The notes below the pieces were generated by a model. The model made no database searches. It was not told the DNA's origin and saw only the letters and a program-made list of their open reading frames with translations. Made by a program: the position numbers and the translations under genes. This document shows, in pieces, positions 6,054-18,346 of a stretch of DNA of 18,467 nt. Source of the stretch: Candidatus Iainarchaeum sp. (lineage in GTDB: Archaea; Iainarchaeota; Iainarchaeia; Iainarchaeales; CSSED10-239). The stretch spans positions 1 through 18,467 of the forward strand of contig CALBUD010000025.1 of assembly GCA_937968065.1 (NCBI GenBank), written 5' to 3'. The stretch's first letter is position 1; every line of letters starts with the position of its first letter.

Positions 6054-6857
6054 ATGAAATTAAAATTTATACTATTAGTTTTTATAGCAGTTCTTTTAAT
6101 AAATACAAATATTTATTCTTTAAAAATATTAGAACCATTAACAAAAGATTTAACTTATTCTAATACAGCTGATTTAGGTTATTTTTCTGCAGGAGAATTT
6201 TTTATGATAAGTTTTCTTCTAGAAGATGGAGATAATTACCATACCATCTCTGTTGATTCTAATCAGATAAAAGAGGTTATTGTAGAACCAACCAAGAAAA
6301 CACAAGAAAGTATATTTACAGTTATTCGTTTAGAGGATGAATTATCAGGAAATTATTCTTTAAAACTATTGTTAATATCTGATACTGAAACAAAAGAAGT
6401 TATTTTACAAATGAAAGTTACAGACGATGTTATTCATACAAACTTAATAAACTATAACCCTGTTATAAGATATGAACAAAAAGAAACTATTAATCTTAAA
6501 CTTATAAATAAATCAAACACCACAAAAACAGTTATTGTGACTTCTGATCTTCCAACAACTTGGTTTAATATTAAAAAAGAAAAATTAAATTCTGAAAAAA
6601 CAATTATCTTAACACCAAACAGTATAACTGAAACCACTTATGAATATTATCCAAAAGAGATTGGATCTAAAATAATTAATCTAAAAATATATACTTCTTT
6701 TGAAGAGGGTCTAGAAAAATATATTAGTTATAATTTAAATGTCGAAGTTGAAAAAGACTTAAAAGCAATTTATGGTTCAAGAGAACACACATATCCTTTA
6801 TTTAATGTTAATTTAATACCAATATATTTTTTAAATAAAATAATTAAAATTATATAA
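6054..6857 (+). CDS. Secreted/surface protein with a probable Ig-like (CARDB/NEW3-like) beta-sandwich domain; function unknown
   Basis: 267-aa ORF with an N-terminal signal-like segment (MKLKFILLVFIAVLLINTNIYS). The rest is beta-rich. The segment ETINLKLINKSNTTKTVIVTSDLPTTWFNI ... IILTPNSITETTYEYYPKEIGSKIINLKIYT resembles archaeal surface Ig-like domains. Confidence 0.65.
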   Translation: MKLKFILLVFIAVLLINTNIYSLKILEPLTKDLTYSNTADLGYFSAGEFFMISFLLEDGDNYHTISVDSNQIKEVIVEPTKKTQESIFTVIRLEDELSGNYSLKLLLISDTETKEVILQMKVTDDVIHTNLINYNPVIRYEQKETINLKLINKSNTTKTVIVTSDLPTTWFNIKKEKLNSEKTIILTPNSITETTYEYYPKEIGSKIINLKIYTSFEEGLEKYISYNLNVEVEKDLKAIYGSREHTYPLFNVNLIPIYFLNKIIKII

Positions 6858-6876: not shown

Positions 6877-8406
6877 ATGGATAAAAAACAACTCTCTCAA
6901 TTAAAAGAGTTTTTTAAAGATATTGATTTAGAAAATATCAAATATAGAGAATTACAAAAATTAAAATCAGAGTTTGCAAAAAAATATAACACATCTAAAC
7001 TACCATTAACTTCAGATCTTTTAAATTGTTTAAAGATACAAAAACCAACAGATACTTTTATAACAAAACCTTCAAGGACTTTATCTGGAGTTACAATAAT
7101 TTCTGTTATGACAAAACCAGATAAATGTCCTGGAAATTGTATTTTTTGCCCTACTTTTAAAGATACTCCTAAAAGCTATACTGGTTTTGAACCTGCGAGC
7201 ATGCGAGGAAAATTAAATAACTTTAATCCTTATAAACAAATAAAAGATAGACTTGCACAACTTAAGGCAATAGGACACCCTACAAACAAATTAGAATTAA
7301 TTATTATGGGAGGAACCTTTCCTGCAACTGATGTTAAATATCAAAAAGAATTTATGATTAAGTGTTTTCAAGCAATTACAAATTCAAAGAGCACAGATTT
7401 AAATCATTTAAAAAAATTATTAATGAAATCTAAGAGAAGAGTTGTTGGAATTACATTTGAAACAAGACCTGATTATTGTGATGAAAAAATAATTAAAAGA
7501 CTACTTGATTTTGGAGGAACAAGAGTTGAAATTGGAGCTCAAACAGTTCAAGATGAAGTACATTTGTTTGTTAAAAGAGGACATACTATAAAAGAAATTA
7601 TTGAAAGTACTAGAAAATTAAAAGACTCTGGTTTTAAGGTACTTTATCATATGATGTTAAACCTTCCTTCTAGTAATCTTAAAAAAGATTTTGAAGATTT
7701 TAAAGAAATTTTTAAAAATCCAGATTATTGTCCAGATATGATTAAGATATACCCTTGTTTAGTTACAGAAAACAGTGTTCTTGAAAAAATGTATTATGCA
7801 GGCAAATATAAGTCATATTCTGAAAAAGATGTTATAAAACTAATTGCTGATATTAAAGAAATAGTACCTAAATGGGTAAGAATAATGAGAGTTCAAAGAG
7901 ATATACCAGCAACAAAAATTCTTGCAGGTATGACAAAAAGTAATTTGAGAGAACTTGTTTTTAAAGAAATGGAAAGAAGAAAAACAAAGTGTAATTGTAT
8001 TAGATGTTGTGAACCTAAATCAAATATAGATAATATTAAAAAATACAGTATTAAAAAAATCAAATATGCAGCATCTAAAGGAAAAGAATACTTTATATAT
8101 GCTGAAAAAGAAAATTATTTATTAGGATTTTTAAGATTAAGAATACCGTTTAAACCTTTTGTTAAAGAAATTACAAAAAAAACAGCAATTGTTAGAGAAT
8201 TACATGTTTATGGACAAGCAACTAAGTTTAAAGATAAAAATATTCAACATAGAGGTGTTGGAAAAAAACTATTAAAGATAGCAGAAGAAATTGCAAGAAA
8301 AGAAAAAATGAATAAAGTTGCTGTTATTAGTGGTATTGGAGTTAGAGAATATTATAAAAAACAAGGATATAAACTTGAAAAGATATATATGGTAAAAAAG
8401 ATTTAA
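6877..8406 (+). CDS. elp3: Elp3-family tRNA U34 modification enzyme (radical SAM plus GNAT acetyltransferase)
   Basis: 509-aa ORF. Radical-SAM cysteine motif CPGNCIFC at 7126-7149 (CX3CX2C). TIM-barrel-type blocks: ELIIMGGTFPA, GITFETRPDYC, RVEIGAQTVQDEV, RGH. Cys-rich KCNCIRCCE segment. C-terminal GNAT motif A: VRELHVYG ... QHRGVGKKLLKIAEEIA. This domain order is diagnostic of Elp3. Confidence 0.9.
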   Translation: MDKKQLSQLKEFFKDIDLENIKYRELQKLKSEFAKKYNTSKLPLTSDLLNCLKIQKPTDTFITKPSRTLSGVTIISVMTKPDKCPGNCIFCPTFKDTPKSYTGFEPASMRGKLNNFNPYKQIKDRLAQLKAIGHPTNKLELIIMGGTFPATDVKYQKEFMIKCFQAITNSKSTDLNHLKKLLMKSKRRVVGITFETRPDYCDEKIIKRLLDFGGTRVEIGAQTVQDEVHLFVKRGHTIKEIIESTRKLKDSGFKVLYHMMLNLPSSNLKKDFEDFKEIFKNPDYCPDMIKIYPCLVTENSVLEKMYYAGKYKSYSEKDVIKLIADIKEIVPKWVRIMRVQRDIPATKILAGMTKSNLRELVFKEMERRKTKCNCIRCCEPKSNIDNIKKYSIKKIKYAASKGKEYFIYAEKENYLLGFLRLRIPFKPFVKEITKKTAIVRELHVYGQATKFKDKNIQHRGVGKKLLKIAEEIARKEKMNKVAVISGIGVREYYKKQGYKLEKIYMVKKI

Positions 8407-8407
8407 T

Positions 8408-8725
8408 ATGGATAAAAATGAAAGATTAATTGAAATGGTTGAAAAAGAACCAGAACTTTTAAAAATACTTAATTCTGAAGAGCATATGCGTGTTTTGCTT
8501 GAAATTAATAGAAAAGCACAAAAAAATGAAGAACTTAAGGTAAATATATATTTTAAAAATGTATCTATACTATATAATATATTAGATACACTTATATCAA
8601 ACAAATTAATTAAAAAAACAGAAATTGATAAAGACATAGTTTATTATCTTACAGATAAAGGAGAAGAGTTTGTTGAGTTGTATCTAAACACAAAAGAGAA
8701 ATTTAACTTAGGTGGTGAAAACTAA
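8408..8725 (+). CDS. Small winged helix-turn-helix (ArsR/TrmB-like) protein, putative transcription regulator
   Basis: 105-aa ORF whose ATG lies 1 nt after the elp3 stop. The pattern ELLKILNSEEHMRVLLEI ... VSILYNILDTLISNKLIKKTEIDKDIVYYLTDKGEEF matches a wHTH layout: helix, recognition helix, then a wing ending in Y-L-T-x-x-G. Confidence 0.55.
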   Translation: MDKNERLIEMVEKEPELLKILNSEEHMRVLLEINRKAQKNEELKVNIYFKNVSILYNILDTLISNKLIKKTEIDKDIVYYLTDKGEEFVELYLNTKEKFNLGGEN

Positions 8726-9076
8726 ATGAAAACATTTTTAGGAATTTTAAGTACTGGAAAAGGTACTTGGGGGCAAGTTGCACACATTATTGATAACACA
8801 GATTACGACAAAGTTTATTTAATATCTAATGAATGGGCACAAGATAAGTTTACTTGTTCAAAAAAAGTAAATTGGATAATCATTGATCCTAGAAAAGGAT
8901 TTTCAGAAATTGTAACAGATATTGAAAATCAAATTGCAAAAGATTTAAATGATATTGAACTTAATCTTCATTCAGGAAGTGGAAAAGAGCATAGTGCAAT
9001 ATTATCTATATTATTAAAAAACAAAATTAAATTTAAAATTGTAACAATTAATGCAGATGGTATAGTAAGATATTAA
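8726..9076 (+). CDS. Small alpha/beta (Rossmann-like) protein with two Gly-rich loops; possible minimal CARF-like or nucleotide-binding sensor domain
   Basis: 116-aa ORF whose ATG immediately follows the wHTH stop (TAA-ATG). A strong SD (AGGTGGTGA) is embedded in the end of the upstream gene. The hydrophobic strand/amphipathic helix pattern alternates: TFLGILS, KVYLISN, NWIIID, IELNLHS, KFKIVTI. The loops are STGKGTW (8750-8770) and NLHSGSGK (8963-8986). Confidence 0.55.
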   Translation: MKTFLGILSTGKGTWGQVAHIIDNTDYDKVYLISNEWAQDKFTCSKKVNWIIIDPRKGFSEIVTDIENQIAKDLNDIELNLHSGSGKEHSAILSILLKNKIKFKIVTINADGIVRY

Positions 9077-9096: not shown

Positions 9097-12000
9097 TTGT
9101 TAAATAAAAAATATTTAATAATTTTTTTATTAGTTATTTTAGTTGGGCTTTCTGGCTGTATTGACTTTATAACCACACAAGAAAAGCAAGCTTGTCTTGC
9201 TTTAACTCATTTTTCTTCAACTTCTATATTGGGTTGTAGCACTCAAAATTCTTGCTACAAACAAGTTGAAAATTTGGATATTTTATCAAATGAAAATTTA
9301 CCATATGAAATATCTAATGATATTTTAATGTATGAAAATTATGTTGCTTCTAGTTATTATTATTATAACCAAAGTTCTAAACTTTTAGAAAAAATAAATA
9401 ATGCTTGTTTTAATGAAAAACCTAAAGATTTAGTTGAGAATGTTAATGAACTTATGTTTTTCTTTTCTCAGTTGTTTGAATATTTAGATAAAACATCTAA
9501 ACAAAGCATATTTTTGTTAATCGATTATTCTATTTATCTTGAAAAAGAAGAAGTTTATTTAATTCCTGAAGAAAAATTATATGATGACTTTATTTTGTTA
9601 AATAATAATTTAAATCAATTAAAAGAAATAAAAAATAAAGATACATATGTTTATAGAATAAATGAAGAAGTTGAAAATCTTCATTATCTTGCTCAAGATC
9701 TTGGATTTAATAGGACATATATATCTAAACAGAATTTTAGTGATTTATCTGAATATTATTTAAAAGTGTATGAAGAAGAAGTAAGTGCACATGAGATTTA
9801 CATTCCAGAAGTTTTTGAAATTGGGAGTTATGTTTTTAAAAAAATATCTGATATTGAAAGTTTAAGAAAAATTAATCTTAATCTTAATAGAATTGAAAGC
9901 TATAATTTTTATAATGTTTTAAATAGATTTATTGGAAAAGACAACTCTATATTGATTGATTTTAAAGAAATAAATAATAATGTAAATAATAATTTAGAAA
10001 ACGTTTTTTTAAAAATAAAACATTTAGAAATAAGTATTGAAGATAATCAAAAATATTTGACCGAAGATACATATCTTGAGTTTAAACAAAATAAAAATTC
10101 TTTTAAAAATAAAGAAATTAGTTTTGGAAGATATCTTGCATATCTAAAAACAATTGATAATTTGGTATCTAAAAACAAAATAAATTTAGATCTTTTAGAT
10201 GCTGAAGAAAAAAGATTGCTTTTAGAGTGTGATTTGGTAATAGCTGATGCAAAAACATACACTAATATTTTTTATAAAACTAAAATTGATGAATATTTGT
10301 TAAATGATAGTTTTATTGAAAAAATAAAAATTTGTGATCAATTAAAACAAGCAATAAATGAAGATTTTTGTCTTTTAAAAATAAATAATTTTTTAACCAC
10401 AGAAGTTTTAGAAACAAAAGAATATGAGTTGTTTATTTTTGAAGATGATTTGATGTGTAGAGAAACAGTTGGAAATATTAATTATAAGTTAAGTTCTAAT
10501 GAAAAAATATTGTTAATTGAAAAAATATTATTTGGTTTAAAACAATATATACAAGAGATAGAAACAAATGTTATAAAAAACGAAAATAAAAAAAGAATTA
10601 TTGAAATAAAAGAAATTGTTTTAAAAATTGATTTTGAAGAAAATATTGTAAAAATTATTAATATAGATTCTAAAATAGATAGATTAATAGAGCAAGAAAA
10701 AGAATTAGATGGTATTGCAAAAAATAGTATTGTTGAAAATAAATTGTTTGATATAAAACATGTAGAGGGAGAATATTATTTTAATATTTATAATCCTTAT
10801 TTTAAAACAATAGAAGAAGTTAGTTTTGAAAATAGATATAACGAAATAACAAGTGATAACCCTAACCTTAAAATTACAACTACTAAGATTACTGCACAAA
10901 AATTATTTTCTGGAGATAATTTATATAAGATAAATTATATTAATAAAAAAATAATTACTTTTGATATATTGAGATTAGATTTAGAAGAATCAATTATAAA
11001 AGTTAATATAAAAAATGAAGTAGAAGGTATTTATGATTTTTTTGATTTTATACCAGGATTTAAAACAAATTCTTCACAAGTTGATATAAATAATTCAAAA
11101 ATAACTTATTTGACAGAAAAAGAAAATAATATTTTTCTTTTTGGAAACTTATTTGAAAGAGAAAGTAATATAGAGGTAGATGAAATTTACTTAGATAAAT
11201 ATATATTAATTGAAAAAATTTCAGTTAAAAATAATTATTTAAAAAATATTGATCAAAAAATTTATTTTAAACCAATCAATAACACAGAAACAATAATTAT
11301 TACAGAAAATAAAAAAGAAATCACGCCTGTTATTGAAAATGGATACGTTACATTTATATTAAAAATAAATCAAAAAGAAACAAAACACTATGAAATACAA
11401 ATGTTGAAAGAAAAAGAAGAAATAAACTTGTTAGTTGAAACATATCTTTTAAAATTAAATAAATATCAATTATCAAGATTTGAAAATATTAAAAACGAAA
11501 GTGAGATTTTATTTAAAGATATAAAAAGTATAAATTTAAATAAAGAATATTCTATTACAGATATTAAAAAAATATTAGATAAAACAAATTATTTCGAAAA
11601 TATTGATTTAAAAATAAATAATTCAGAACTTGCAGAAATAAATTATTTAAAGTTATATAATAACATAAACCTAGAAGAATTAACAGTTTCTGAAAAAAAC
11701 AAATTAGATAAGATAGATTATAATAAATATAAAGATATTGTTGATGCAGAAGAAGAATTGAAAAAGTTATTACTTGAAATTCAAGAAAGAAAAAATGAAG
11801 AAGAAGAAACAAAAATCAAAATTGATGAAATACAATTGAATAACTTAAAAGAAAAAATAACTAAATATAATTTAGAAGGTATAGAGTTAAGTAAATATAA
11901 AGATTTAGAAGAGATCGATAAAATAATTAAAGATAAATTAAAAGAACATGCTCAAAATATATATTTAAACATAAATCCAGATATAACTGGTTTAAACACA

Positions 12001-12579
12001 AGAAAGATTGAAGAGTTAATAAATAAGATTTATATATTATACGAAGATTATTCTTTAAGAGATTTATATAACATCAATTATTTTGCAAGCATAACTATTA
12101 ATGACGCAGAAAGACTTGAAAAAAACAAAGATTTTTTAGATACTGTTATGTTTAATAATGAACTTTTAAAATTTGAAGAAAATTATAATGCAGAAGAATA
12201 TGAAAAAGCAATAAATTCTATTTCTACTCAGACTATAAGTAGAATTGAAAAAATAAAAACTGAAATGAATTTATTAGAAAAAGGACTAGAAGAAGTTAAA
12301 AAAGATGCAAAAGAACTAATTACTTCTTCTCAAAAAAATAATTTTGATTCTGAAATATTAGAATTTGCAAAAGTTAATTATGAGAATGAAAAATATCTAA
12401 ACACAATTATTTTATTAAAAGAAAATAAAGTAAATAAAAATAAACTAAATATAAATCAATATTTAATAGGAATTGTTATAGTTTTTATTTTTGGACTAAT
12501 ATATGCTTATTTTAAGATAGGGAATAAGAAAAAAGAAGAAACAAAACAAGAGAAGAAAAAAAAGATTATAAGACACTAA
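9097..12579 (+). CDS. Giant (1160 aa) surface protein: signal peptide with lipobox, long coiled-coil-rich ectodomain, C-terminal TM anchor with K-rich tail
   Basis: The longest ORF in the window. It has a TTG start (9097-9099) preceded by AGGGGAT (9082-9088). There is no in-frame ATG until about residue 77, so TTG is needed to keep the signal peptide MLNKKYLIIFLLVILVGLSGC (lipobox LSGC, Cys codon 9157-9159). The C-terminus is YLIGIVIVFIFGLIYAYFKIGNKKKEETKQEKKKKIIRH. Confidence 0.8.
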   Translation: MLNKKYLIIFLLVILVGLSGCIDFITTQEKQACLALTHFSSTSILGCSTQNSCYKQVENLDILSNENLPYEISNDILMYENYVASSYYYYNQSSKLLEKINNACFNEKPKDLVENVNELMFFFSQLFEYLDKTSKQSIFLLIDYSIYLEKEEVYLIPEEKLYDDFILLNNNLNQLKEIKNKDTYVYRINEEVENLHYLAQDLGFNRTYISKQNFSDLSEYYLKVYEEEVSAHEIYIPEVFEIGSYVFKKISDIESLRKINLNLNRIESYNFYNVLNRFIGKDNSILIDFKEINNNVNNNLENVFLKIKHLEISIEDNQKYLTEDTYLEFKQNKNSFKNKEISFGRYLAYLKTIDNLVSKNKINLDLLDAEEKRLLLECDLVIADAKTYTNIFYKTKIDEYLLNDSFIEKIKICDQLKQAINEDFCLLKINNFLTTEVLETKEYELFIFEDDLMCRETVGNINYKLSSNEKILLIEKILFGLKQYIQEIETNVIKNENKKRIIEIKEIVLKIDFEENIVKIINIDSKIDRLIEQEKELDGIAKNSIVENKLFDIKHVEGEYYFNIYNPYFKTIEEVSFENRYNEITSDNPNLKITTTKITAQKLFSGDNLYKINYINKKIITFDILRLDLEESIIKVNIKNEVEGIYDFFDFIPGFKTNSSQVDINNSKITYLTEKENNIFLFGNLFERESNIEVDEIYLDKYILIEKISVKNNYLKNIDQKIYFKPINNTETIIITENKKEITPVIENGYVTFILKINQKETKHYEIQMLKEKEEINLLVETYLLKLNKYQLSRFENIKNESEILFKDIKSINLNKEYSITDIKKILDKTNYFENIDLKINNSELAEINYLKLYNNINLEELTVSEKNKLDKIDYNKYKDIVDAEEELKKLLLEIQERKNEEEETKIKIDEIQLNNLKEKITKYNLEGIELSKYKDLEEIDKIIKDKLKEHAQNIYLNINPDITGLNTRKIEELINKIYILYEDYSLRDLYNINYFASITINDAERLEKNKDFLDTVMFNNELLKFEENYNAEEYEKAINSISTQTISRIEKIKTEMNLLEKGLEEVKKDAKELITSSQKNNFDSEILEFAKVNYENEKYLNTIILLKENKVNKNKLNINQYLIGIVIVFIFGLIYAYFKIGNKKKEETKQEKKKKIIRH

Positions 12580-12641
12580 TTAATAGAAAATAAGATAATT
12601 ATATAAATTATTTGATAGTATTTATATATTGGGAATTAAAT

Positions 12642-13808
12642 ATGTTTAAAAAAAATATGTTATTTATAATTGGATTATTACTCTTAATCTCTAGTGGAAT
12701 CTATGGAAGTGTTTTAGATGAAAAAACCTTGCAAGATATAACACCAGGAGATTTAATTATAAATAAAGATGAAAGCATATGTCAAGAATATTCTTTTTCC
12801 ATAGCAGGTATTGATGATAAGTCAAAAGCTTTTTTGCAATTATTTATTAAAAATTATATTCCTATTCAATCTAATGTAAGTATAACTGTATTTTTAGATG
12901 ATATTGAGATTAAAGAAGTAAAAAATAAAGATATATTAGAAAAAAATATAATTGAGCTAACTAATATAAAGTCAGAAAACAATCTAAAAATCTGTATTGA
13001 AAATAATTATTTACCAAGAATTGTGATAGATCAAAAAAGTATTATAGGTAATTATTATGTTGGAGAGATTAAAGAAGATGATTTTTATCAAAATGCACCT
13101 ACAACGGCTTACACTAACACTATGATACCAATTGATTTATTTGTAAGAAATAGTGGATATGATGATTTATATATTGAAGTTATAAATGCTACTGATAAAT
13201 TTATATATAATTCAAATCTTGAAAATGTTTCTGGAGAAACACATTTTAAAGGAATTTTAAAATCACAAGAAACACTCACATTAAATTATTTTGTAAAAAC
13301 TAGTTTAGATACTTCTTTTGCAACTCCACTTGCTAAATTGACTTACACAGATAATTTTGGAGTTAAACATACAAGATTAATAGAAACAAAAGTAATAAAC
13401 TTAATTGAACAAGAATCAAATATACAAGTATATACAGATATATTTAGAAAAATAGAGCCAAATAAAGAATATAAAGGTAATCTTATAATTAGAAATAATT
13501 CTGAAAAGATAATTTCTGATATTTATATATTTAATAATTTTAAGGGCACAATTATTTTAGATACAGACTATATTAATGAAATAGAACCAAAAAATGTAAT
13601 TGAAATTCCATTTTTAATAAAAACATATAAAGAAGATACATATCCTCTTAATTTTAATATTTATTATAAGACAAACAATATTGAAAAAAATGTAGGGTCT
13701 CCACTTATAAATATAATTTCAGAGAACGAAGAAAATAAAGAAAGTACAGCAATAACAATTTTAATTATTTTAACTATAATTTTATTTATATGGATTGTTA
13801 AAATTTAA
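12642..13808 (+). CDS. Surface protein with signal peptide, Ig-like (CARDB-like) repeats and a C-terminal TM anchor; function unknown
   Basis: Start moved to the ATG at 12642 (MFKKNMLFIIGLLLLISSGIYG is a good signal peptide); the TTG-extended ORF from 12612 adds only 10 non-signal residues. Two segments fit a beta-sandwich surface-domain pattern: IPIDLFVRNSGYDDLYIEVINA and YKGNLIIRNNSEKIISDIYIFNNF. The C-terminal TM is AITILIILTIILFIWIVKI. Confidence 0.72.
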   Translation: MFKKNMLFIIGLLLLISSGIYGSVLDEKTLQDITPGDLIINKDESICQEYSFSIAGIDDKSKAFLQLFIKNYIPIQSNVSITVFLDDIEIKEVKNKDILEKNIIELTNIKSENNLKICIENNYLPRIVIDQKSIIGNYYVGEIKEDDFYQNAPTTAYTNTMIPIDLFVRNSGYDDLYIEVINATDKFIYNSNLENVSGETHFKGILKSQETLTLNYFVKTSLDTSFATPLAKLTYTDNFGVKHTRLIETKVINLIEQESNIQVYTDIFRKIEPNKEYKGNLIIRNNSEKIISDIYIFNNFKGTIILDTDYINEIEPKNVIEIPFLIKTYKEDTYPLNFNIYYKTNNIEKNVGSPLINIISENEENKESTAITILIILTIILFIWIVKI

Positions 13809-15557: not shown

Positions 15558-18017
15558 TTAATTTTTATAATCTACCATTTTTTTTTGTTCTTTAGAGTTA
15601 GGTGTAATTTTTAAAAAAACCTCTTCTTCTAGTTCTTTTTGTATTTTTAAAGCATTTTCAATAAGGTTGTTTGGAAGTCCTGCTAATTTAGCTACTTGAA
15701 TACCATAACTTTTATTAATTCCACCTTCTATTAACTTATGAAAAAATAATAAATTTGTTCCTTCCTCTTTTGCAGTTACGTGAAAATTTTTAATCCCTTT
15801 AAATAAAACTTCCATTTTGTTTAATAAATGATAGTGGGTTGCAACTAATGTTTTAGAATTAATAAAATTATTTAAATATTCTATTATTGACCAAGCCAAA
15901 CTTAATCCATCATATGTGCTTGTTCCTCTTCCAACTTCATCTAAAATAACAAAACTATTTTTAGTACAATTATTTAAAATATATGCAATTTCAGACATTT
16001 CTACTAAAAAAGTACTTTGGCCATGAATAATATCATCAGAAGCACCAACTCTTGTAAATACAGCATCAATAAAACCTATTTCAGATTCTTTTGCAGGAAT
16101 AAAGCAACCGATATGTCCAAGAATAATTGCAAGGCAAACACTTCTCATATAACTGCTTTTACCAGACATGTTTGGTCCTGTAATTATCATTGTTTTTGTA
16201 TTTTCGTTTAATTTGCAATCATTTGGAATAAAAGTAACTAATTTTTCTATAATTGGATGTCTTAAGTCTTTGAAAAAAAGATTGTTAGAATTATTTAATT
16301 TAGGTTTATAAAAATTATTTTTTGAAGAGGTAATTGCATGAGATAAATATACATCTAATTCTGCAATTATATTTGCAGTTAATAAAATTTGTTCTTTATA
16401 AGTTAATATTTGTTTGCAAAGATCTAAAAAAATGTTATATTCTAATTCTATTCTTTTTTCATTAGAATTTAGAAGAATATTTTCTTTATCTGAAAGTTCT
16501 TTTGTTGTAAACCTTTCAGCATTAACCAAAGTTTGTTTTCTTTCAAAATAATCAGGTGCTTGGTTTGCTTGTAGTTTAGAAATTTCTATATAATATCCAA
16601 AAATTTTATTATATTTTACTTTTAGAGATTTTATATTAGTTTCGTTTCTTAATTTGTTTTCAAATTCTACAAGCCAAGAATTAATTGATTTATTTATGTT
16701 AATTATATTATATAATTCTTCTGAAAAATTCGGTTTTATAAATTTACCTTCTCTTACACTAAAAGGAGGTTCATCAATAATAGTTCTATCTATTAGTTTA
16801 AATAATTCATTTAAAGTAATTAAATTTTTATTTAATTTTATTAGATTATCTGAAGTTGTGTTTTTTAAAATTATCTTTAATTTAGGTAATATTGAAATAC
16901 TTTGTTTTAAACTAATTAAATCTCTAGGGTTTGCATTTCCAAACCCTATTTTACTAATTATTTTTTCAAGATCTCCAATATAAGATAATTGTAAAGAGAG
17001 TCCTTGTAATAAATGTGTGTTATTTATTAATTCTTGGACAGAATTATTAATATTAATTAATTCTTTTTTATTTAAAAGAGGGTGTAAAATATCAAAATAT
17101 AATTTTCTATAACCTAAAGGGGTTTTTGTATTATTAATTAAATAAAATAAACTGTCTTTTATAGAGTTGTTTTGTAGATTTGAAACTAGTTCTAAATGTC
17201 TAACTGTTTTACTATCTAGTTTTAAATATTCATTTAAAGAATAATCTTTAATTTTACTAATATAAGTAACTTCTGAAAATTGAGTTTCTTTTATGTATTT
17301 AAGAGCATTATAACAAGAAATTATCAATTCTGGGGTTTTAAAAATATCTAATCCAAAAGTAGTTAGTGATTTTAATTTAAAATGAGTTAATAAACTATTA
17401 TTTGATAATTCTAAATCTAAATTATCTGTGTAATTAATAATTGTATTAGGAATTGTTTTTTTAATATCTTCTATAATATTAATATCTTTTAATAAATTTT
17501 TAGTTAATAATAATTCTTTTGGTTTAATTAAAGAAAGTTCATTTAATATTGTTTGAATAGAATTAAATTTAGTTGTTTTAAAATCACCAGTAGTAATATC
17601 TATTAATGAAAATCCAAAAAAACCTTTATAAAAAGAAATAGAACACAAAAAATTATTTTCATAATTGTCATTAAAAAATGTGCTTGGTGTAATTATTCTT
17701 GTAACTGCTCTTTTAACTAATCCTTTTGCAAATTTAGGGTCTTCTATTTGTTCGCAAATAACTACTTTTTTACCAGCTTTAATTAATTTAGATATGTAAG
17801 GGTCAATAGAATGATAAGGAATTCCTGCAAGTGGTGCTTGAGTGTCTCCCTTTCCTCTTTTTGTTAAAGTTATATTTAATATATTAGATGCAATTTTAGC
17901 ATCATCGTAAAACATTTCATAAAAATCACCAGCTCTAAATAATAAAATACCTTCTGGATATTGTTTTTTAGTATCTATATATTGTTTCATCATTGGTGTG
18001 TAGTTATTTTCTTGCAT
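15558..18017 (-). CDS. mutS: DNA mismatch repair protein MutS (MutS1 type)
   Basis: Start set at the ATG at 18015-18017 (MQENNYTPMMKQYIDTKKQYP...). The upstream 29 codons of the track ORF run into tRNA-Phe. Mismatch-recognition motif GDFYE at 17916-17930. Walker A GPNMSGKS at 16155-16178. Also STFLVEMSE, DEVGRGTSTYDG and THYH. Confidence 0.92.
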   Translation of the reverse strand: MQENNYTPMMKQYIDTKKQYPEGILLFRAGDFYEMFYDDAKIASNILNITLTKRGKGDTQAPLAGIPYHSIDPYISKLIKAGKKVVICEQIEDPKFAKGLVKRAVTRIITPSTFFNDNYENNFLCSISFYKGFFGFSLIDITTGDFKTTKFNSIQTILNELSLIKPKELLLTKNLLKDINIIEDIKKTIPNTIINYTDNLDLELSNNSLLTHFKLKSLTTFGLDIFKTPELIISCYNALKYIKETQFSEVTYISKIKDYSLNEYLKLDSKTVRHLELVSNLQNNSIKDSLFYLINNTKTPLGYRKLYFDILHPLLNKKELININNSVQELINNTHLLQGLSLQLSYIGDLEKIISKIGFGNANPRDLISLKQSISILPKLKIILKNTTSDNLIKLNKNLITLNELFKLIDRTIIDEPPFSVREGKFIKPNFSEELYNIININKSINSWLVEFENKLRNETNIKSLKVKYNKIFGYYIEISKLQANQAPDYFERKQTLVNAERFTTKELSDKENILLNSNEKRIELEYNIFLDLCKQILTYKEQILLTANIIAELDVYLSHAITSSKNNFYKPKLNNSNNLFFKDLRHPIIEKLVTFIPNDCKLNENTKTMIITGPNMSGKSSYMRSVCLAIILGHIGCFIPAKESEIGFIDAVFTRVGASDDIIHGQSTFLVEMSEIAYILNNCTKNSFVILDEVGRGTSTYDGLSLAWSIIEYLNNFINSKTLVATHYHLLNKMEVLFKGIKNFHVTAKEEGTNLLFFHKLIEGGINKSYGIQVAKLAGLPNNLIENALKIQKELEEEVFLKITPNSKEQKKMVDYKN

Positions 18018-18079
18018 AATATAATATATAATAGAAAACTTATTTAAAAATGAGTTTATTTTATTTTTAAAAAGATAAG

Positions 18080-18153
18080 TGGCTCCGGTGGGATTTGAAC
18101 CCACGACACATAGGTCTTCAGCCTATTGCTCTCCCAGGCTGAGCTACGGAACC
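18080..18153 (-). tRNA. tRNA-Phe (anticodon GAA)
   Basis: Hand-folded cloverleaf on the - strand: GGTTCCG TA GCTC AGCCTGGGA GAGC A ATAGG CTGAAGA CCTAT GTGTC GTGGG TTCAAAT CCCAC CGGAGCC A. All stems pair, with U3-G70 as a wobble. G37 is present. CCA is not encoded. 74 nt. Confidence 0.93.
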
Positions 18154-18168
18154 AATATTTTTTTAACG

Positions 18169-18243
18169 TGAGCTCGGTGGGATTTGAACCCACGACACCT
18201 GGATTAAGAGTCCAGTGCTCTAACCGAACTGAGCTACGAGCCC
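18169..18243 (-). tRNA. tRNA-Lys (anticodon CUU)
   Basis: Hand-folded on the - strand: GGGCTCG TA GCTC AGTTCGGTTA GAGC A CTGGA CTCTTAA TCCAG GTGTC GTGGG TTCAAAT CCCAC CGAGCTC A. 75 nt, no encoded CCA. Confidence 0.93.
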
Positions 18244-18272
18244 AATTTCTTAAAAAAATATTAAAATTAATG

Positions 18273-18346
18273 TGAATCCGGTGGGATTTGAACCCACGAC
18301 ACCTGGATTAAAAGTCCAGTGCTCTGCCAGACTGAGCTACGGATCC
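18273..18346 (-). tRNA. tRNA-Lys (anticodon UUU)
   Basis: Hand-folded on the - strand: GGATCCG TA GCTC AGTCTGGCA GAGC A CTGGA CTTTTAA TCCAG GTGTC GTGGG TTCAAAT CCCAC CGGATTC A. 74 nt, no encoded CCA. Confidence 0.93.

Follow-up and report, generated by a model that had tools for sequence, protein, structure and literature searches.

An 18,467-nt stretch of DNA from the archaeon Candidatus Iainarchaeum sp. (contig CALBUD010000025.1), analysed here over its whole length and called the window below, carries on its forward strand, at positions 8726–9076, a gene for a protein of 116 amino acids that we refer to as mini-CARF. It appears, at a probability that we would put near one half, that this is a minimal stand-alone CARF protein from a DPANN-wide family that has neither a database model nor a link to CRISPR-cas, and that it acts as a homodimer, either as a sink for a nucleotide-derived ligand or as a ring-nuclease-like enzyme. 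The gene was called as an open reading frame (ORF) with an ATG start. The evidence for our reading comes from its conservation in a large protein family, from the fold predicted by AlphaFold2 (AF2), from Foldseek matches of that fold to CARF domains and from the genomic surroundings of its homologues.

A conserved family defined by two glycine-rich loops

The original prediction, made from the DNA letters alone, described a 116-aa ORF with two glycine-rich loops, and both are present exactly as described. Loop 1 (S9-T10-G11-K12-G13-T14-W15, or STGKGTW, residues 9–15; positions 8750–8770, + strand) is rich in Ser/Thr and Gly and follows strand β1, between the strand of residues 3–7 and the helix of residues 15–23 of the AF2 model; from this location and its conservation it is predicted to contact a ligand or phosphate. 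Loop 2 (N80-L-H-S83-G84-S-G86-K87-E88-H89-S-A91; positions 8963–8998, + strand), which reads NLHSGSGKEHS over residues 80–90, comprises the turn after β4 and the start of helix α4, and its conservation marks it as a predicted phosphate-binding motif.

A word-indexed search returned 30 close homologues of 69–91% identity, all of about 116 aa (one labelled 'Candidatus ainarchaeum sp.', several 'archaeon'), and when 28 close homologues are aligned, neither loop shows any variation. When 1.84 billion cluster representatives were searched exhaustively with a HMMER profile, the family grew to at least 182 clusters (50% identity) at E ≤ 1e-3, with 69 at E ≤ 1e-10. Members have a typical length of about 118 aa, almost all falling between 114 and 136 aa; nearly all match end to end and stand alone. 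The few longer ones look like fusions to the gene downstream that arose by frameshift or misassembly: in P0085 the mini-CARF part is followed by Orc1/Cdc6 sequence, in P0158 by a ZPR1-like zinc ribbon.

Conservation was calculated over 105 diverse full-length members that are 20–40% identical to the window protein. In loop 2, G86 is found in 100% of them, G84 in 98%, H89 in 96%, S83 in 90%, N80 in 88% and A91 in 86%, and position 87 is Lys in 71% and Arg in 6% (77% together). The signature N-x-x-S-G-x-G-K-E-H of this loop is the most conserved block of the family. Loop 1 follows with W15 (81%), G11 (79%), K12 and G13 (76% each), and Ser or Thr occupies position 14 in 82%, position 10 in 48% and position 9 in 47% of the members. 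Since the two loops hold the most conserved positions across this set, we regard them as the defining features of the family. The prediction had been staked on their conservation among homologues, which is seen in both the 28 close and the 105 diverse sequences. The ORF is therefore a conserved gene under selection and not a chance ORF.

No model matching the 116-aa window protein was found in scans of Pfam and NCBIfam. It should be noted that the JGI names given to several homologues, 'CbiK' or 'ERCC4-related helicase' (P0002, P0018, P0027 and P0023), look wrong.

Predicted fold and relation to CARF domains

The AF2 model, built from the 28-sequence alignment, has a pLDDT of 92.1 and a pTM of 0.86. 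Its strands span residues 3–7, 29–34, 49–52, 77–80, 103–109 and 112–115 and its helices residues 15–23, 36–41, 59–69 and 86–98, giving the topology β1-α1-β2-α2-β3-α3-β4-α4-β5-β6, with six strands, four helices and a terminal hairpin. The alternation of strands and helices with loops after β1 and β4, as it had been read from the translated ORF, is borne out by this model.

CARF domains are defined by a Rossmann-like core of six strands, the last two of which pair as an antiparallel hairpin with no helical crossover between them (PMC4012209; PMC13148439), and the reverse turn that replaces the β5-β6 crossover separates them from classical Rossmann folds (PMC13148439). Such a hairpin is present in the AF2 model, a predicted structure, at residues 103–115 (positions 9032–9070, + strand), where strands 103–109 and 112–115 are joined by a two-residue turn. 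In a Foldseek search against PDB, ranks 1–45 are all CARF domains and the first non-CARF match comes at rank 46 with an E-value of 1e-2. The best E-value (6.7e-6) belongs to Can2 (8q3y) and the highest TMq (0.72) also to Can2 (8bao; root-mean-square deviation of 3.1 Å over 124 columns), with further CARF matches to Cdn1, Csa3 (2wte, 6wxq, 6w11), TtCsm6, the Crn1 enzyme Sso2081 (8htw and 7ygh, E ~1e-3), Cam1, Card1, VC1899 and Csx1-Crn2. A Rossmann-like fold of CARF type, with the loops at the positions of the CARF ligand motifs, had been anticipated, and both the 45 top matches and the predicted hairpin agree with it.

Two sequence motifs are also characteristic of CARF domains, a Ser or Thr at the end of strand 1 and a basic residue directly following strand 4, in many cases as part of [DN]X[ST]XXX[RK] (PMC4012209). 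In mini-CARF, S9-T10 stand directly after the strand of residues 3–7 and T14 precedes α1. The stretch after β4, N80-L-H-S83-G-S-G-K87, corresponds to [DN]XX[ST]XXX[K], in which the S-x3-K part fits and the Asn is one residue further off. Csa3 binds the phosphates of cyclic tetra-adenylate (cA4) through the main-chain amide of a Gly and through the Arg in its post-β4 motif L-x2-G-h-R (PMC8699464), which sets a precedent for the role of G84-x-G86-K87.

Sequence comparisons point the same way at low scores. When the 105 members were scanned with Pfam, the families with most members matched were Csa3_N (4 members, best E 0.041) and HFX_2341_N (3 members, best E 5.9e-4), all below threshold; the other 56 families were nearly all hit by a single member. 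A DUF6293/HFX_2341 profile, built starting from the gene that adjoins mini-CARF in locus L033, was aligned to the mini-CARF family by hhalign at an E-value of 0.082, which is not significant alone. The alignment is in register, placing l-N-x-x-S-G-x-G-K-E-H-M-A over i-N-V-S-T-G-D-R-d-t-r-C-A with its canonical CARF motif N-V-S-T-G-D-R. In a local hmmsearch with the DUF6293 N-domain profile, 27 of 105 real sequences reached at least 5 bits versus 6 of 1050 shuffled ones, and at least 10 bits were scored by three real members versus no shuffled sequence, again with alignments in register. Searches of PDB by sequence, whether with a single sequence or with profiles, found no CARF protein for mini-CARF. 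Membership in the CARF superfamily is thus supported mainly by the predicted structure, and the link in sequence is weak but consistent.

A P-loop NTPase, already discounted in the original prediction, can be set aside. The Walker A pattern G-x4-G-K-[ST] is absent, as G6 is not conserved (Ala in 53%) and K12 is followed by G13 in place of Ser or Thr; no such protein is among the top 50 Foldseek matches in PDB, and the Pfam matches of P-loop type (nSTAND3 and SRP54) are weak and come from single members.

Distribution and genomic context of the family

To locate family genes we used one peptide pattern, SG[ST]GKEHM, derived from an 18-sequence subset, in one-genome-per-species GTDB representatives, which gave at least 559 confirmed loci. 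This is a lower bound, because the subgroup of the window reads SGSGKEHS and is missed by the pattern. The best 80 of the 559 loci (L007–L086) are almost all labelled Woesearchaeota, Nanoarchaeota or Nanoarchaeia. Mini-CARF is a widespread DPANN gene family, and the earlier label of an orphan sensor proved too narrow for what is found at no fewer than 559 species-level DPANN loci and is no stray defence remnant. Several metagenome-assembled genomes titled 'Methanosarcinales archaeon' or 'Aminicenantes bacterium' (L010, L012, L054 and others) carry copies that are 58–64% identical to those of Woesearchaeota; these titles probably reflect mis-binning or mislabelling.

In the close lineage of the window the gene order Elp3, winged helix-turn-helix (wHTH) protein, CARF, ~1160-aa protein, ~390-aa protein and MutL is conserved. 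None of the window's neighbours (the wHTH protein, Elp3, the 1160-aa protein and others) was found when sought by phmmer beside 80 diverse homologues. There, the commonest neighbour is a gene for an Orc1/Cdc6 AAA+ protein, located downstream on the same strand in 23 of 80 loci, and mini-CARF may lie near a replication origin. A ZPR1-like zinc-finger/jelly-roll protein is found nearby in at least 9 of 80 loci by clustering, and a few further ones are encoded immediately downstream. The neighbours also include genes that were judged, from the sequences alone, to be Rhomboid, site-2-protease-like and ThiI-like. In 18 of 80 loci a protein of ~151 aa is encoded upstream on the opposite strand (e.g. 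L071:5257-5712, – strand); its sequence reads MKISKDLPLSEITLRRYEKPY...GDSRDIVVDIL..., with no Pfam match at E ≤ 0.01. Same-strand neighbours within 30 nt number 11 upstream and 10 downstream. Across these 80 loci mini-CARF has no constant gene partner.

Intermediate relatives show other surroundings. One (L087) lies beside genes for a phosphoribosyltransferase, an aminoacyl-tRNA synthetase and primase, another (L090) beside RtcA, eIF6 and SRP54. Two more, P0035 and P0068, are found in L088 (Logan SRR30303857 contig, 60 kb) and L089 (GCA_004196315.1 SDBT01000424.1, 66 kb), where many short ORFs with no Pfam match surround the mini-CARF gene, a 64-aa HNH-like ORF abuts its start, and the gene content includes a UvrD-type helicase (phrog_1967, 4e-49), a PolB-exo/RNase H-like gene and a ParB/DndB/GmrSD_N-like gene. 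These two regions could be mobile elements or archaeal viruses that carry the family. An apparent module of CARF and a 284-aa protein in the two loci resembling mobile genetic elements was discarded, the two 284-aa proteins being unrelated. A viral origin of the family was likewise rejected: a search of IMG/VR with a single pattern gave no member, and the best BFVD match (E 1.2e-3, TMq 0.47) is not significant.

CARF proteins are reported to be strongly linked to CRISPR, and only 9 of 145 CARF-bearing genomes in a 2014 census lacked both cas1 and cas10 (PMC4012209). The contexts of mini-CARF are unlike this, being array-free, with neighbours that are mainly housekeeping genes and not type III cas loci. 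In the window and 90 loci, 853 kb in total, the only CRISPR-like array was one four-copy candidate in L020. The window itself contains no CRISPR-like array, and Rfam gave just three tRNAs in it. Among the window ORFs scanned, a set that leaves MutS/MutL and several short ORFs outside, there was no match to CRISPR, cas or cyclase/Cas10 families, in keeping with the earlier remark that no CRISPR-cas or cyclase gene was visible. PADLOC matched mini-CARF to Csn2 (E 1e-3); this match is short and partial, has no supporting context and was dismissed.

Possible function

Mini-CARF has neither an effector domain nor a constant operon partner, so its activity must be self-contained. By analogy with characterised CARF proteins, we propose that it would form a homodimer in which the loops after β1 and β4 build a pocket on the two-fold axis, and that Gly backbone amides together with Lys87 or Lys12 would grip a nucleotide-derived ligand by its phosphates. 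Candidates for this ligand are cyclic oligonucleotides and RNA ends that bear a 2',3'-cyclic phosphate; the second is suggested by the CARF domains of RtcR type. As no cyclase was detected among the window ORFs scanned, the ligand need not be a cyclic oligoadenylate. The most likely role would be to sequester or cleave it in the manner of Crn1, Csx15 and Csx20, with the near-invariant His89, Ser83 and Thr14 as candidate catalytic or ligand-orienting residues.

The comparison with known CARF systems is instructive here. The stand-alone CARF-like proteins Crn1, Csx15 and Csx20 are ring nucleases or sponges (PMC13148439). Like them (Crn1 being represented by Sso2081), mini-CARF is small and essentially a CARF domain with no effector domain, and it shares with them conserved Ser/Thr, Lys and/or His residues around the pocket, which in mini-CARF is a predicted one. 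In contrast to these proteins, which have cA4 as their substrate or ligand and are encoded for the most part within CRISPR loci of type III, mini-CARF occurs in DPANN housekeeping contexts with no array nearby, is shorter (~118 aa versus ~180 for Sso2081 chains) and has its own motifs, GKGTW and SGxGKEH. Csa3 and DUF6293/HFX_2341 proteins resemble it through the Foldseek matches to Csa3, the weak Pfam matches and post-β4 motifs that align in register; DUF6293, with at least 979 relatives, many from DPANN lineages, is common in the same lineages as mini-CARF. However, mini-CARF has no fused wHTH domain, and the basic residue of its motif comes one position later. The CARF domains of Can2/Card1 and Cdn1 are its best structural matches, at 15–19% sequence identity, yet these are two-domain proteins of 340–440 aa, type III nucleases activated by cA4 or cyclic tri-adenylate, whereas mini-CARF has no nuclease domain.

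Several observations weigh against a ligand-binding CARF protein. The structure of mini-CARF is a prediction, and homology to CARF at the level of sequence stays below threshold (no Pfam or NCBIfam match for the window protein, and the hhalign E-value given above). The post-β4 motif is one residue longer than [DN]X[ST]XXX[RK], and its Lys87 is kept in just 71% of members, or 77% with Arg. No cyclase/Cas10 gene was seen among the scanned window ORFs and no array within the 853 kb apart from the L020 candidate, so cyclic oligoadenylate may not be the ligand. Finally, housekeeping neighbours such as Elp3, Orc1/Cdc6, ZPR1, aminoacyl-tRNA synthetase and primase would fit a non-signalling role equally well.

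The upstream wHTH gene and alternative explanations

Immediately upstream of mini-CARF lies a gene for a 105-aa wHTH regulator of ArsR/SmtB-HxlR-MarR type (positions 8408–8725, + strand), the stop codon of which, TAA at 8723–8725, directly abuts the CARF ATG at 8726. Its helix-turn-helix (HTH) matches are below threshold in both Pfam (HTH_45/PadR/HxlR) and NCBIfam. The AF2 model (pLDDT 86) shows a winged helix with N- and C-terminal helices, and its top Foldseek matches are YodB/HxlR (TMq 0.75), SmtB, CzrA, ArsR-like proteins, MarR and RosR. A true wHTH protein and the TAA-ATG junction are therefore both confirmed, as foreseen. Being a complete winged helix with terminal helices of its own, the protein is of the stand-alone dimeric regulator type and not a fragment. 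Only 14 homologues are detectable, with 58–100% identity, all from the window's own lineage, and it evolves faster than its neighbour (55–75% identity to the window copy versus 69–91% for CARF). A PADLOC match of this protein to LmuC (E 8e-6) was also rejected as short, partial and unsupported by context.

A Shine-Dalgarno-like motif, GGTGGTGA (positions 8711–8718, + strand), ends 7 nt before the CARF ATG, inside the codons of the disordered wHTH tail. A motif of this kind stands 5–12 nt upstream of the CARF start in 6 of 6 lineage loci, located either within the codons of the wHTH tail or in a spacer of 9 nt, but before the ATG in just 7 of 80 Woesearchaeota homologues. The last residues of the wHTH protein, L-G/N-G-G-E (codons within 8699–8725), are strongly conserved yet predicted to be disordered (pLDDT < 50), and conservation of this Gly-Gly tail may be driven by the translation signal of the CARF gene. 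Together, the junction and the conserved motif make it probable that in the window's lineage one transcript carries both genes and that their translation is coupled. A functional wHTH-CARF partnership is possible there: with both genes probably in one transcript, ligand status may reach transcription, and mini-CARF might pass it on through the ArsR/HxlR-type repressor in addition to its proposed role of sequestering or cleaving the ligand.

A stronger version of this idea, a two-piece Csa3-like regulator in which ligand-bound mini-CARF physically controls DNA binding by the adjacent wHTH protein, seems unlikely to us, though it is the best of the alternatives. It would account for two co-oriented genes with a 0–9 nt gap and a conserved Shine-Dalgarno-like motif across the lineage, and for an upstream product that is a true wHTH protein, the wHTH domain of Csa3 being MarR-like (PMC8699464). 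Two further loci are in line with it. In L033 the start of the mini-CARF gene shares 4 nt with the end of a gene for a CARF+wHTH protein of the DUF6293/HFX_2341_N family (43.9 bits, with weaker matches to Csa3_N and HTH_24), and in L009 a transmembrane-anchored wHTH protein is encoded 1 nt upstream of mini-CARF. However, proteins of ArsR/HxlR/MarR type work as autonomous dimers, and the window's wHTH protein is complete, with its own terminal helices. It is confined to the narrow lineage of the window, with no homologue found by phmmer beside 80 diverse mini-CARF genes. HTH proteins make up only 2 of ~22 tight same-strand upstream genes, as determined by inspection and by Pfam on selected examples. 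Tight packing is in any case common in small DPANN genomes, and Elp3, too, lies just 1 nt away. In Csa3 and DUF6293 the wHTH is a C-terminal domain of the same polypeptide; mini-CARF ends after β6, at residue 116, and the wHTH protein beside it is of an unrelated type and encoded upstream. The suggestion in the original prediction that the pair is a split and reordered Csa3 is consequently not supported, given a complete, lineage-restricted wHTH protein, a CARF family that stands alone throughout and tightly placed upstream HTH genes in just two loci. The arrangement in L033:5339-6004 (OY970338.1, a Woesearchaeota chromosome), a DUF6293 CARF+wHTH gene followed by mini-CARF, is in itself a tandem of two CARF-type genes.

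Somewhat less probable still is a housekeeping adaptor or structural protein that keeps a CARF-like Rossmannoid fold and works independently of any ligand, for example with Orc1/Cdc6 or ZPR1. The wide occurrence of the family in reduced DPANN genomes, the information-processing character of its neighbours (Orc1/Cdc6 in 23 of 80 loci, ZPR1-like proteins in at least 9) and the chimeric database entries P0085 and P0158, which join mini-CARF to exactly these neighbours, can all be read in this way. On the other hand, the best-conserved residues are those of the two loops, at the C-terminal sheet edge where Rossmann-like domains typically bind their ligands, and not on an obvious protein-protein surface. 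The Orc1/Cdc6 linkage, seen in 29% of loci, belongs to one related clade and may be inherited synteny, and the two chimeras resemble products of frameshift or misassembly.

It is very improbable that the protein is a small class II chelatase of CbiX-S/CbiK-like type that binds metal through His89 and Glu88: the 96% conservation of His89, the JGI label 'cobalamin biosynthesis Co2+ chelatase CbiK' on 3 of 30 close homologues and a profile match to CbiK-like heme-binding FetB, which sets SGSGKEH over GHGTEH, speak for it, but that match (E 0.03-0.035) is not significant, chelatases are absent from the top 50 Foldseek matches versus 45 CARF domains, the β5-β6 hairpin is a CARF feature, no chelatase model in Pfam or NCBIfam matches, and no tetrapyrrole-pathway gene neighbours mini-CARF in any locus examined. 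We therefore treat the CbiK/CbiX label and the FetB match as noise and retain the minimal CARF protein as the preferred explanation.

Other features of the window

The window is an AT-rich archaeal fragment with genes for Elp3, Taw3/TYW3, a DUF373 protein, an SPFH protein, an RqcH-like N-terminal fragment, MutL and MutS. Elp3, a radical-SAM/GNAT enzyme of tRNA U34 modification (positions 6877–8406, + strand; TIGR01211, E 1.7e-182), ends 1 nt upstream of the wHTH gene. Three large ORFs have no Pfam match above threshold: 9097-12579 (+, 1160 aa), 12612-13808 (+, 398 aa) and 6054-6857 (+, 267 aa). All three products have N-terminal hydrophobic segments, those of 1160 and 398 aa have C-terminal ones too, and the 1160-aa sequence contains a lipobox-like LSGC and a weak LPAM_1 match; they are probably cell-surface proteins.

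The RqcH-like ORF at 1161-2207 (+, 348 aa) covers positions 6-375 of the 645-position archaeal RqcH model and scores 88 bits versus a cutoff of 400, so it may be a truncated or N-terminal-only RqcH. Three tRNA genes stand in a row at 18080-18346 on the minus strand (Rfam scores of 65.7-72.9 bits). The mechanically called MutS ORF (15558-18104, GTG start) runs into the first of them. Owing to this overlap, the true MutS start is probably an internal Met further downstream (MQENNYTPMMKQY...).

Implications

We regard the mini-CARF family as a new stand-alone form in the CARF superfamily for which no model exists; it may have been listed earlier in the 2020 census (Makarova et al., NAR). Its definition would improve annotation of DPANN genomes, where these proteins have no Pfam or NCBIfam model and are sometimes mislabelled as 'CbiK' or 'ERCC4-related helicase'. 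CARF domains are known almost entirely as cyclic oligoadenylate sensors and ring nucleases of type III CRISPR immunity, and the family described here, with CARF-only members of ~118 aa, is kept among housekeeping genes by hundreds of DPANN species.

If mini-CARF binds a ligand, it would point to a pathway of nucleotide signalling or RNA-end sensing outside CRISPR, operating in very small genomes, and structural and binding studies would gain a natural CARF scaffold of very small size. More tentatively, and at odds that we consider low, the family could encode a CARF sensor or enzyme that works independently of CRISPR and is retained by DPANN archaea as a widespread and perhaps core gene. Were this true, reduced symbionts would possess a housekeeping signal derived from nucleotides, for instance a cyclic oligonucleotide or RNA ending in a 2',3'-cyclic phosphate, and the 118-aa module might resemble the ancestral stand-alone unit from which the CRISPR-associated sensors arose.

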